The notes under the pieces are model-generated. The model was given only the letters and a program-made list of their open reading frames with translations. It was not told the DNA's origin and ran no database searches. The position numbers and the translations under genes were made by a program. A DNA stretch of 64,000 nucleotides from Escherichia phage vB_EcoP_HC-25922: sequence record OQ555404.1. One strand, written 5' to 3'. This document shows, one piece after another, positions 58,662 to 61,905 of this stretch. Position 1 is the stretch's first letter; every line of letters starts with the position of its first letter.

Positions 58662-58928
58662 TTACTTAGTAATAAAGACTGTCATCTTATTCATTACCCA
58701 GCCTATTAACATAAGTAGAGGTAAGAGGAAGATAAAGATCAGCATAAAAGGCCAAAAGAATATTACCGTCCAAATAGAATATTCATCAGGCTTACCACTC
58801 CATGAGGAATGGAAGAAGTTGTAGAGTGTATTGGTTTTGAAGCACCACTTAACTACAATGGCAGCTAACCACCAACCAATAACATAAATCAGGAGGACAT
58901 ACGCTGCTGTAACCATTGACCGTTCCAT
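58662..58928 (-). CDS. small membrane protein
   Basis: 88 aa with 3 hydrophobic segments. Confidence 0.35.
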   Translation of the reverse strand: MERSMVTAAYVLLIYVIGWWLAAIVVKWCFKTNTLYNFFHSSWSGKPDEYSIWTVIFFWPFMLIFIFLLPLLMLIGWVMNKMTVFITK

Positions 58929-59143
58929 TGATAGTTGCGAGTGACCACGTTTCCGTGGATAAGGAAGTGCTGGCGGCGAAGGATATCTTTAACGTTGTAA
59001 TAGGCAGCGTTTCCTAGATGACCTTCTTTAATAAGCCAACGAAGATTACGGATATCAACCAACAGCATTTTTACTTGCTGTTGGCATGAAGTTTGAGCCG
59101 CTGTTTCAAGTAGAGCTTTCGTATCAGAATAATGACCAGACAT
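58889..59143 (-). CDS. hypothetical small protein
   Basis: 84 aa ORF. Confidence 0.3.
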   Translation of the reverse strand: MSGHYSDTKALLETAAQTSCQQQVKMLLVDIRNLRWLIKEGHLGNAAYYNVKDILRRQHFLIHGNVVTRNYQWNGQWLQQRMSS

Positions 59144-59144
59144 A

Positions 59145-59471
59145 TCACCACTCCTTACCTGTTGTTGTCACAGAACCACCACACAGCTCACCACGGGAGA
59201 TGAAGTCATAACGTGACCAATCACCTTGGGTAGCCATATCACGATCTGCATAAGCTTTCTCGTCAACAGCACCGCCATTGGAACAAGAAGCACCAGCATA
59301 ACGCATATCAATTTCACCACTAGGAATCTTCTCCCCGCTATGCCAACGGGAAACGCATACACCCTCTACAGCTACTGCACACCACCCATCAGGACGATGC
59401 TGTACACAGCCTGTAAGAGCTACACAGGCGATAAAGATACAGGTTAAGGTAATTACACCACCCCAGCTCAT
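59145..59471 (-). CDS. putative lipoprotein, Cys-rich
   Basis: signal peptide with lipobox LTGC, then a Cys-rich soluble part. Confidence 0.4.
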   Translation of the reverse strand: MSWGGVITLTCIFIACVALTGCVQHRPDGWCAVAVEGVCVSRWHSGEKIPSGEIDMRYAGASCSNGGAVDEKAYADRDMATQGDWSRYDFISRGELCGGSVTTTGKEW

Positions 59472-59626
59472 GATCCCTCCTGAAGCGCCTTACGGCGGCT
59501 ATCTCGCCAAGCCATCCATAGGTAGGTTTTAAGTTCTTCTCTTTCTTCTTCGCTGAACAAAGGAGAAGTAAAGATATCATCGAACCACTCATTAAACTCA
59601 GGGGTCATAAACCCTCCTATTTGATT

Positions 59627-59653
59627 TGGTGGACTATCTGGAATCGAACCAGA
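59627..59653 (-). other. tRNA 3'-half-like fragment (T-arm plus acceptor 3' strand)
   Basis: minus-strand TCTGG-TTCGATT-CCAGA T-arm followed by TAGTCCACCA; no complementary 5' acceptor strand found. Confidence 0.3.
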
Positions 59654-59752
59654 AGCTCACTAAGAAAGCAATTCCCACTGTTATAAAAGCACTTGCCTCA
59701 ACAGGGATACACTAACTCTGGTGCCGTACCCATACTAGCCCTTGTTTAAAAT

Positions 59753-59780
59753 TGGTCGGGACGGAAGGATTCGAACCCTC
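59753..59780 (-). other. tRNA 3'-half-like fragment ending in CCA
   Basis: minus-strand GAGGG-TTCGAAT-CCTTC T-arm followed by CGTCCCG-A-CCA; no room for a full tRNA. Confidence 0.3.
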
Positions 59781-59804
59781 CTACGTTGATTTAAAAGCTC
59801 TTAG

Positions 59805-59883
<79 letters not shown>

Positions 59884-59906
59884 ATTAAGAGCTTTCAATA
59901 TTTTGT

Positions 59907-60116
59907 TTAACTGAAAATACGCAAGGCCACATCATGACCGATATGACCGGGAACTTTGTGCTGCTCTATTTTCAAACAGAGTTTACAAACACGAGACACA
60001 CGAGACTCTTTCGCTTCGACTGGAGTGTCTTTAGCGTGAGTGATGTGTAGGTTTTCAGTGATCACCCACTCGTGTTTACATCCAGAATCTTCGGGCTTTT
60101 TCTTACGAAAGAACAT
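59907..60116 (-). CDS. small Cys/His protein, tandem paralog 1
   Basis: CKHEW...RVCKLC; start set at internal MFFRKKK. Confidence 0.35.
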   Translation of the reverse strand: MFFRKKKPEDSGCKHEWVITENLHITHAKDTPVEAKESRVSRVCKLCLKIEQHKVPGHIGHDVALRIFS

Positions 60117-60124
60117 AACACCTC

Positions 60125-60289
60125 TTAGATCAGATCTGTTTTCTTGTGCAGACCACACACTTTACAGCGAGAGTAGATACGCAACCCTTGTCGCTCTCTG
60201 TCAGTAAGTTTATTTGTGATCGTCAGTTCATAAGTATGAAGATCTTCCCACTCATGGAAATGAAAGAAACGTTTGAACCATTTAATCAT
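60125..60289 (-). CDS. small Cys/His protein, tandem paralog 2 (54 aa, below ORF-track cutoff)
   Basis: MIKWFKRFFHFHEWEDL...RCKVCGLHKKTDLI read from the minus strand. Confidence 0.35.
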   Translation of the reverse strand: MIKWFKRFFHFHEWEDLHTYELTITNKLTDRERQGLRIYSRCKVCGLHKKTDLI

Positions 60290-60298
60290 AATGATTCC

Positions 60299-60460
60299 TT
60301 AGATTACATCACGATGACTAACATCACCACACACCTTACACTGAATAACGTAACGTGTGCCCTTGTCATTGTTCCCATCTGAATCTGTATAGACCAGAGG
60401 ACGGGTGTTAATAATCTTCCAATCATGACAATGGAAGACACGCTTTAGCCATTTAATCAT
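60299..60460 (-). CDS. small Cys/His protein, tandem paralog 3
   Basis: MIKWLKRVFHCHDWKII...QCKVCGDVSHRDVI; start set at internal MIKW. Confidence 0.35.
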   Translation of the reverse strand: MIKWLKRVFHCHDWKIINTRPLVYTDSDGNNDKGTRYVIQCKVCGDVSHRDVI

Positions 60461-60461
60461 A

Positions 60462-60719
60462 CTAAGCACACGCCGGTAATTCAATTAACTGAGGAGTACG
60501 ACAAGGGCCATCCTCATACACACCTACTAGTGTTGGCATGTAAGGCCCAGCGCACTGGTATTCATCGAACAGTTCATTGTAAGTAGGCTTCCACTTCCAA
60601 GCCCACACATAACCCATTCGATCAATGGCAATGTAACGAGTGTTCAGAGGAACCTGCATCATCACATCACCAACTGCTATTACTTTCGTAATAACTACTG
60701 CTCGGAAGTTTGTCTTCAT
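60462..60719 (-). CDS. hypothetical small protein
   Basis: 85 aa ORF. Confidence 0.35.
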   Translation of the reverse strand: MKTNFRAVVITKVIAVGDVMMQVPLNTRYIAIDRMGYVWAWKWKPTYNELFDEYQCAGPYMPTLVGVYEDGPCRTPQLIELPACA

Positions 60720-61024
60720 GACTTTGCAGCCTCCATCATTTTATTCATTTTAGCCACACCTTTACGGATAAGAGGCATAAATTCATCAGCCAGTTCAGTG
60801 GATAAAAGTTTAAGCCCGCCTGATTTAATACCGTTCACCGCCTTCTCAACTTCATCCGACAGCAATGTCATTGTTAACCACGGGGATTTTATTACCACAG
60901 TAAAGCCCGGTTCATACCGCGAGTGACTGTAGGTGAACTCTAAATGAGTAACACCGGGCATCTTAGACATTTGAGCACGGATATCTACATTAGGGTTGCA
61001 GCGAGTTGAAGATGAAATTGTCAT
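60716..61024 (-). CDS. hypothetical protein
   Basis: 102 aa ORF. Confidence 0.4.
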   Translation of the reverse strand: MTISSSTRCNPNVDIRAQMSKMPGVTHLEFTYSHSRYEPGFTVVIKSPWLTMTLLSDEVEKAVNGIKSGGLKLLSTELADEFMPLIRKGVAKMNKMMEAAKS

Positions 61025-61272
61025 GGCGCTTTAATCTCAATCTGAACGTTGACGACGAATACAGTATGGTTTGCACTGTACACTGAAGTGCCTATGATTG
61101 GCTTATCATCACTGAGGATTTCAACAGCGTGCTCAAGGTTAATCTTCAGATGAAGACGCCCTGATTCCATGAAGAAATCACCAGCACGTATCTCACCGAA
61201 CTTAGCTGGCACACCGATAGAGGGTATCAGTATGTCAGTGCGACCTTTACGGTCAAATAAACGATTGAACAT
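61021..61272 (-). CDS. small protein, GD.F-family paralog
   Basis: FGEIRAGDFFME...RLHLKIN. Confidence 0.35.
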   Translation of the reverse strand: MFNRLFDRKGRTDILIPSIGVPAKFGEIRAGDFFMESGRLHLKINLEHAVEILSDDKPIIGTSVYSANHTVFVVNVQIEIKAP

Positions 61273-61281
61273 ATCAACCCC

Positions 61282-61491
61282 TTATGTAATATCAACCTCA
61301 AACCAACAGGTAAGAGCTTTTTCATTGTTGCGTTTTGGCTCAAAGGATTTAACAACCGATAATACTCGGCGCTGTTCTCCATCAAACCAGATAGTTTCAT
61401 CTTTTTCAGGGAGTAGGTTGTGTGCAGCACAAACGATTTCACCTAGCACAACCTGTCTGCCATCTTGCTTACGAACTAAACGAATGTTCAT
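61282..61491 (-). CDS. hypothetical small protein
   Basis: start set at MNIRLVRK with AGAGAGG RBS after the terminator. Confidence 0.35.
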   Translation of the reverse strand: MNIRLVRKQDGRQVVLGEIVCAAHNLLPEKDETIWFDGEQRRVLSVVKSFEPKRNNEKALTCWFEVDIT

Positions 61492-61534
61492 AACAACCTC
61501 TCTTGTTAGTTTAAGTAAGAGTTGTCCCTTAATT

Positions 61535-61567
61535 AAAACAACAAAGGCCACCCCTAAGGGCAGCCTC
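61535..61567 (-). terminator. rho-independent terminator (minus strand)
   Basis: minus-strand GGCTGCCC-TTAG-GGGTGGCC followed by TTTGTTGTTTT. Confidence 0.5.
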
Positions 61568-61571
61568 TTAT

Positions 61572-61775
61572 TTAAGCGCAAGCACTACGCAGTTTGTTAT
61601 TCAAGAAGCGATCTTCTGCATTATACAGGAATGCATAGAACAACTCTTTTGCTACATCCCGATCGCAATTGAGACATTTAGAGATCTGTAACAACAAACC
61701 ATCACGACTATTAGGATGGTCAATTATCGCAAGACGAATAATCTCACGAATACCAATGTCATGCTCAGCCGCCAT
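61572..61775 (-). CDS. hypothetical small protein
   Basis: ORF 61572-61787 taken from its internal ATG (MAAEHD). Confidence 0.3.
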   Translation of the reverse strand: MAAEHDIGIREIIRLAIIDHPNSRDGLLLQISKCLNCDRDVAKELFYAFLYNAEDRFLNNKLRSACA

Positions 61776-61905
61776 AGAACCAATCACCCTGACGTTTACG
61801 AATGTTAGTTGTCAGACGAAGCATGGCAGACTCAATCTTCAGAGCACCATTTGCTACTGCATCCATACGTTCAGGACGGTTCATACGTTTGGTTGTCTTT
61901 TTCAT
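61765..61905 (-). CDS. small basic protein (46 aa, below ORF-track cutoff)
   Basis: MKKTTKRMNRPERMDAVANGALKIESAMLRLTTNIRKRQGDWFYGG. Confidence 0.3.
   Translation of the reverse strand: MKKTTKRMNRPERMDAVANGALKIESAMLRLTTNIRKRQGDWFYGG

Follow-up and report, generated by a model that had tools for sequence, protein, structure and literature searches.

Three small adjacent genes on the minus strand of Escherichia phage vB_EcoP_HC-25922 (OQ555404.1), here named A, B and C, were followed up within a 64,000-nt stretch of its DNA (the window). Our findings support a model where A and B are tandem paralogs from a phage-restricted family of predicted mini zinc ribbons, while C probably shares with them an architecture and a very old origin. 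As to what these proteins do, the reading we favor, at a probability of roughly 0.4-0.45, is that all three are early binders of protein targets, serving host takeover or anti-defence. The genes were already known as annotated hypothetical proteins clustered in PHROGs, and the fold class is known as well; the new elements are that a sizeable family with no Pfam entry is delimited here, with its motif, a model and a variable loop, and that C is set apart from A/B. The sequence-only reading had placed three genes here, and they are present at those positions; its remark that the middle one falls below the 60-aa cutoff of the ORF track is also borne out when the minus strand is read:

Gene A: 60299-60460, minus strand; ATG at 60460, stop at 60301-60299; 162 nt, 53 aa; predicted mini zinc ribbon, subtype A1; MIKWLKRVFHCHDWKIINTRPLVYTDSDGNNDKGTRYVIQCKVCGDVSHRDVI
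Gene B: 60125-60289, minus strand; ATG at 60289, stop at 60127-60125; 165 nt, 54 aa; paralog of A; MIKWFKRFFHFHEWEDLHTYELTITNKLTDRERQGLRIYSRCKVCGLHKKTDLI
Gene C: 59907-60116, minus strand; ATG at 60116, stop at 59909-59907; 210 nt, 69 aa; separate family; MFFRKKKPEDSGCKHEWVITENLHITHAKDTPVEAKESRVSRVCKLCLKIEQHKVPGHIGHDVALRIFS

The source phage is a phiEco32-like podophage of the Gordonclarkvirinae. The gene region matches 87 phage records, almost all of them phiEco32-like C3 podophages (Gordonclarkvirinae: Kuravirus, Suseptimavirus), with Escherichia phages TH42, IME267, 101114UKE3 and MLP3 the closest (96-99% identical). A, B and C belong to a block of small ORFs, read leftward, that separates the helicase gene from tRNA-Arg and is syntenic with phi32_107 and its flanks in phiEco32 and with the early region (CDS 69-125) of SU10, whose syntenic genes belong to the early class (PMC8948821; PMC4281155). 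A leftward operon read from sigma-70 promoters at the right genome end, and syntenic with experimentally classed early genes, points to early expression of all three; the label of early gene given by the sequence-only reading draws its support from one source, synteny with the phiEco32 and SU10 early genes. A promoter scan gave no enrichment, and no internal promoter stands out. The block from the helicase to the tRNA locus is functionally uncharacterised throughout: eight of nine flanking small ORFs (58662 to 61787, including 60462-60719 on the minus strand) match PHROGs of unknown function, and the ninth matches none.

Kinship of the three genes

The three proteins carry a common signature, [H/C]-x-H-x-W near the N-terminus and C-x-x-C about 26-29 residues further on. 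Searched as [HC]xHxW-(20-38)-CxxC, it is found only in A, B and C among the 1259 six-frame ORFs of the window, with 0.01 expected from residue shuffles. The motifs described in the sequence-only reading need some adjustment: its F.H.W is a real shared element, the exact form of which is H-x-H-x-W in A and B (FHCHDW, FHFHEW) and C-x-H-x-W in C (CKHEW), and its CK.CG applies to A and B (both CKVCG) but not to C (CKLCL). The shared residues do align, with H-x-W and C-x-x-C in register over 40 columns of the A/B and C profiles.

Between A and B the relationship is plain. BLASTP aligns them at 41% identity (E=1e-13), both match PHROG 8294 (A at E=2.5e-24, over profile positions 1-56 of 56; B at E=1.5e-17), and the DNA itself is repeated:

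Direct repeat, copy 1: 60419-60461; 5' end of gene A; 81% identical to copy 2, at a spacing of 171 nt
Direct repeat, copy 2: 60248-60290; 43-nt stretch at the 5' end of gene B
Second repeat: 60326-60340 and 60152-60166; 15 nt, 93% identical, at a spacing of 174 nt; spans the codons for CKVCG

The two genes also end alike, with GAY-NTN-ATC-TAA-G followed by the Shine-Dalgarno sequence of the next gene. In NJ01, A is directly followed by C, and the sequence joining them fuses exactly the 3' end of A with the B-to-C junction as found in the window, so that recombination between the repeated ends has added or removed one unit. The BLASTP similarity, the repeats at 171-174 nt, the repeated junction and the NJ01 unit indel together identify A and B as a tandem paralog array; the proposed expansion by tandem duplication holds only for this pair, C having another PHROG and another distribution. 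A1, the subtype found in the window, A2, an alternative type of the first gene, and B are roughly as distant from one another as from metagenomic members, and a distance bootstrap did not recover the three as mutual closest relatives; either the duplication is thus old or there has been exchange of alleles.

The repertoire in relatives is variable, comprising one gene (phiEco32), two (NJ01) or three. In phiEco32 the single copy, phi32_107, is of type A2 and directly followed by tRNA-Arg, and C is absent. The first slot is occupied by A1 (window) or A2 (EK010, PAS59), about 54% identical to each other, while the adjoining B and C are nearly identical. A/B-type genes were located by tblastn in about 90 kuravirus-like records, 35 of which have B orthologs (≥60% identity), and C in about 47 kuravirus-like and about 29 Vequintavirinae records (CR3/8/9, W70, F4M1E, Kashira, PcCB7V). 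Narrower searches returned less: a related-locus search with a narrow A/B profile yielded NJ01, ECBP2 and phiEco32 only, and a word-indexed protein search four matches for A and two for C. The examples of PHROG 8294 (A, B) and PHROG 13426 (C), among them phi32_107, NJ01_122/123 and ECBP2_0103/0104, hold the same position by tRNA-Arg in the Gordonclarkvirinae early operon, with no difference from the genes described here; membership explains no mechanism, since these clusters are without functional or structural annotation.

Beyond these phages, a HMMER search with the A/B profile against 1.84 billion cluster representatives identified 133 clusters (defined at 50% identity; E≤1e-3), nearly all of them stand-alone proteins of 47-67 aa. 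Six long proteins with multiple matches (P0085, P0094, P0102, P0108, P0130 and P0131) were set aside and rejected as family members; their sequences are repetitive or multi-zinc-finger and unrelated to it. Among cultured phages the family is carried by Gordonclarkvirinae, Pseudomonas Bruynoghevirus, phage ventosus and Synechococcus phage B3, the last with two copies. The longer member contigs are phage-like (DNA ligase, primase-helicase, split PolA, HNH and ribonucleotide reductase genes), and where contigs are long the members have small ORFs as neighbors and belong to phage replication or early modules; in the longer contigs examined, no gene recurs beside them as a conserved partner. As judged from these records, the A/B family is shown to be phage-restricted and made of stand-alone proteins of about 50-57 aa.

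Three members or their surroundings deserve separate mention. On JGI metagenome contig Ga0613792_000150 (L024, 4431-6876), a distant member of 53 aa (P0021) and two small ORFs lie between the halves of a split family-A DNA polymerase. A metagenomic protein of 182 aa (P0095) consists of three tandem (C/H)xHxW...CxxCG domains joined by proline-rich linkers, a fused counterpart of the gene array. In the left-end region of Pseudomonas phage TL, near annotated early genes, an unannotated ORF (L015, 3703-3942) overlaps the end of gp08 and encodes a diverged member (...GCFFGVHDYKIIRTG...YYDLQCKVCGDVKRKVMKA); annotation of TL and of other Bruynogheviruses has probably missed this gene.

The position of C is harder to establish. 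The triplet could really be a doublet, with C unrelated to A/B, its metal motif convergent and the gene perhaps received by horizontal transfer from large myophages. C matches a different PHROG (13426, E=3.6e-36), its family is common to the Vequintavirinae and absent from phiEco32, and no A/B-type gene lies beside the C homologs in five Vequintavirinae loci. Pairwise similarity is slight as well: BLASTP aligns C with A at E=0.001 and does not find B, and hhalign, run with the 120-sequence A/B alignment against 7- or 24-sequence C alignments, returns P of about 1e-3 and a probability of 20-22%. C further bears an extra conserved C-terminal module, E-x-H-x-V-x-G-H-I...A-x-x-I-F, and a fold search with its model retrieved its own family with no A/B-family member among the best 50 matches. 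Nevertheless, an A/B HMM built without C ranks C third of the 1259 window ORFs (E=4.6e-5, the next at 0.089), the register of both motifs is kept in the profile alignments, and 17 A/B-family clusters themselves have C-x-H as first ligand pair, like C. The predicted strand order is also identical, and the A model matches the C family at a TM of 0.64-0.66. On balance we consider an unrelated C somewhat unlikely; C is not a recent third duplicate, and its weak profile similarity to A/B probably reflects a common architecture of very old shared origin.

Predicted fold and putative role

Conservation within the A/B family is concentrated on the putative metal ligands, which in gene A are H10, H12, C41 and C44. 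H12, C41 and C44 are invariant in the 120-sequence alignment, W14 and G45 exceed 90%, H10 and G34 reach 86-89%, and L22, R36, Y37, K48 and D51 stand at 62-67%. The first ligand is His in 86% of the family and otherwise mostly Cys; the pattern (H/C)xHx[WYFH]...CxxC is retained in 122 of 127 short members, including the 17 with Cys in first place. Column entropy is highest at positions 18-33, and the median pI is 9.2. In the C family H15, R42, C44, C47, E51 and H53 are invariant, and the first Cys is shifted or missing in some members; since this Cys is not fixed while H53 is, the fourth ligand of the C family may be a different one.

The AlphaFold2 model of gene A, built on the family alignment (mean pLDDT 90), has a helix at residues 3-8 and strands at 14-25, 31-41 and 47-52; that of gene C (pLDDT 82) has strands at 17-27, 35-44 and 50-56 and a helix at 61-68. 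In both models the HxH/CxH pair is located in the linker just ahead of strand 1 and the CxxC at the turn between strands 2 and 3. Measured against zinc ribbons, the family presents four conserved ligands in two pairs (in the C family with a variable first Cys) and, in the predicted models, three antiparallel strands forming a sheet, with a knuckle where strand 2 turns into strand 3; of the two pairs, only the second is a CxxCG knuckle, where classical CPxCG-type ribbons would have two. What is predicted is a zinc-ribbon-like fold, three antiparallel strands with an unusual first ligand pair, expected to hold one structural metal ion per protein, presumably Zn2+; metal binding is deduced here from conservation and a metal-free model. 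The zinc-ribbon-like character proposed earlier is supported by the invariant H12/C41/C44, the His/Cys swap at ligand 1 and the AlphaFold layout.

The closest known systems include the classical zinc ribbons (the NrdR N-terminal domain, the TFIIS/RPB9 C-terminal domain, bL32 and eS27); a PDB sequence search with both family profiles gave nothing below E=0.3. Against BFVD, the A model matched its own family (EP335, ventosus) and, at TM 0.64-0.66, C-family proteins, namely I1TR93 of CR3 (TM 0.66) and a 146-aa protein. Pfam hmmscan gave no match to A, B or C at E≤10, nor to 120 family members at E≤0.01, and PADLOC and NCBIfam no meaningful match or family model; no paper on these proteins was found in the literature. 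DUF1660 (PF07874, a prophage protein) and DUF4379 (a probable treble-clef zinc finger) comprise small phage or prophage proteins with G-H-x-W ... C-x-x-C. They resemble the present family as short phage-associated metal-binding modules with H-x-W and CxxC, and the multi-domain P0131, matched by the A/B profile, also matches both. Membership in either was rejected, with no match near the gathering score and a single one of the 120 members hitting DUF1660 (E=0.036).

How would such proteins act? In the mechanism that we propose, a metal ion would be held by the N-terminal (H/C)-x-H pair, followed by the invariant Trp, and by the C-x-x-C knuckle, forming a conserved scaffold from which the strand 1-2 hairpin would project, with a tip that is hypervariable both in sequence and in length. 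Proteins this small would have no room for a catalytic site, so stoichiometric binders are proposed: with a pI of about 9, they would bind a host macromolecule soon after infection, as dispensable accessory factors of host takeover or anti-defence. Target specificity would be set by the variable hairpin, extra copies would widen the target range, and the number of genes would shift through unequal recombination between the repeated gene ends. The hairpin is where differences among the orthologs of A and of B are seated (e.g. ECBP2), including a 5-residue deletion in the ECBP2 A1.

The nature of the target is less clear, given that the basic charge fits nucleic-acid binding and protein binding equally. 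A, B and C might instead be nucleic-acid-binding zinc ribbons, attaching to DNA or RNA or docking on RNA polymerase or the ribosome and regulating phage or host expression, in keeping with their charge and with their zinc-ribbon neighbors. Yet the similarities behind this alternative are all below significance, the exposed hairpin is the most variable part of the protein, and phages that are nearly identical differ in both copy number and alleles, as would be unusual in a core regulator. Furthermore, host proteins are the targets of most early phage proteins of this size that have been characterised. We regard a nucleic-acid target as unlikely and retain binding to a protein target as the preferred, if tentative, reading. 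PhiEco32 gp79, T7 Gp2 and Gp5.7, T4 AsiA and LUZ24 Mip offer parallels in size, early operon, accessory status and lineage-specific distribution; none is a zinc ribbon or shares sequence or fold kinship with A, B and C, and the analogy would be one of function.

Should the predicted fold be right, these genes represent a compact phage-specific zinc-ribbon family of at least 133 clusters, outside Pfam, NCBIfam and the PDB, with a model of high confidence and an evident specificity loop. A broader proposition, which we offer as a long shot, is that the (H/C)xHxW...CxxC mini zinc ribbon is a widespread and unnamed phage binder scaffold, a hypervariable hairpin on a metal-stapled sheet, carried singly, in tandem or fused (P0095) against varied host defence or housekeeping targets. 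If so, the A1/A2 allele swaps and the gain and loss of units in Gordonclarkvirinae would be the signature of an arms race. These phages are common, have broad host ranges and are reported to be highly resistant to the defence systems tested (PMC11990801). For E. coli K-12 the BASEL isolates Bas86-91 can be obtained, and Bas87 has the same triplet, which makes deletion and pull-down experiments practical.

Coding status

The coding status of the triplet was assessed from start sites, annotation and substitution pattern. The ORF track begins gene A at TTG 60484 (61 aa) and gene C at GTG 60158 (83 aa); the ATG starts adopted here for A, B and C fit the family-wide N-termini and the CDS lengths annotated in relatives. 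The A/B family-wide N-terminus, M-x-x-W-L-K-R, is present in gene A. Shine-Dalgarno sequences precede gene B (AAGGA at 60300-60296) and gene C (AAGAGGTG at 60126-60119), and none was recognisable for gene A when the minus strand was read directly; its ATG lies 1 nt past the TAG (60464-60462) of the upstream ORF, a spacing that suggests translational coupling. All three are annotated CDSs (hypothetical proteins) in IME267, Bas87, SGF2, CHD5UKE1 and other relatives. Computed over 12 related loci, dN/dS comes to 0.08 for the A1 type, 0.08 for the A2 type, 0.28 for B and 0.10 for C; variable sites in A and C are mostly at third codon positions, and the substitutions of gene B cluster in the strand 1-2 hairpin. 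With values of 0.08-0.28 across related loci, this comparison shows A, B and C to be real protein-coding genes under purifying selection. That at least one of the ORFs is untranslated, being spurious or acting as RNA, could be argued from the gene A start and from the lack of a match for a homolog in the SU10 proteomics supplements, but is hardly credible given dN/dS far under 1 in all three with third-position changes dominating in A and C, amino-acid motifs and an exact N-terminus kept in hundreds of distant homologs, strong Shine-Dalgarno sequences at B and C with stop-start coupling at A, and no significant Rfam family across the genes.

The tRNA locus beside gene C

Just downstream of C, at 59805-59883 on the minus strand, the window and TH42 contain a 79-nt tRNA-like gene, at a site occupied by a canonical tRNA-Arg(UCU) in all 10 relatives checked. 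The RNA would comprise a 7-bp acceptor stem, a UAUCUCA linker replacing the D-arm, a CUUCUAA anticodon loop, a variable region of about 22 nt and a normal T-arm; ARAGORN makes no call, and the Rfam tRNA model scores 36.4 bits. About 224 phage records contain homologs, most of them unannotated or labeled 'tRNA-OTHER' and, in the loci examined, placed in or beside tRNA clusters; the carriers are phi92-like phages, Vequintavirinae, Felixounavirus, jumbo phages and a single Vibrio phage. Pairing in the acceptor, anticodon and T stems stands at 98% among seven divergent copies, with compensatory changes in 12 of 17 pairs, a count reached by none of 500 shuffles; hardly any variation is seen in the linker, the CUUCUAA loop or the 'variable' region. 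By this covariation it is a genuine conserved RNA, which may merit more attention than the protein triplet. Whether it works as a non-canonical tRNA or as an anticodon-nuclease decoy is speculation.

The locus bears other traces of tRNA genes. A tRNA 3'-half-like remnant, GGAGGGTTCGAATCCTTCCGTCCCGACCA, lies at 59753-59781 on the minus strand and consists of the T-arm, the acceptor 3' strand and CCA with no matching 5' half; a second 3'-half-like stretch (about 59600-59735, minus strand), common to IME267, ends in CTGGTTCGATTCCAGATAGTCCACCA. These remnants suggest repeated rearrangement of tRNA genes at this locus. HNH endonuclease genes are also found near it in relatives (Bas91; Logan contig L012).
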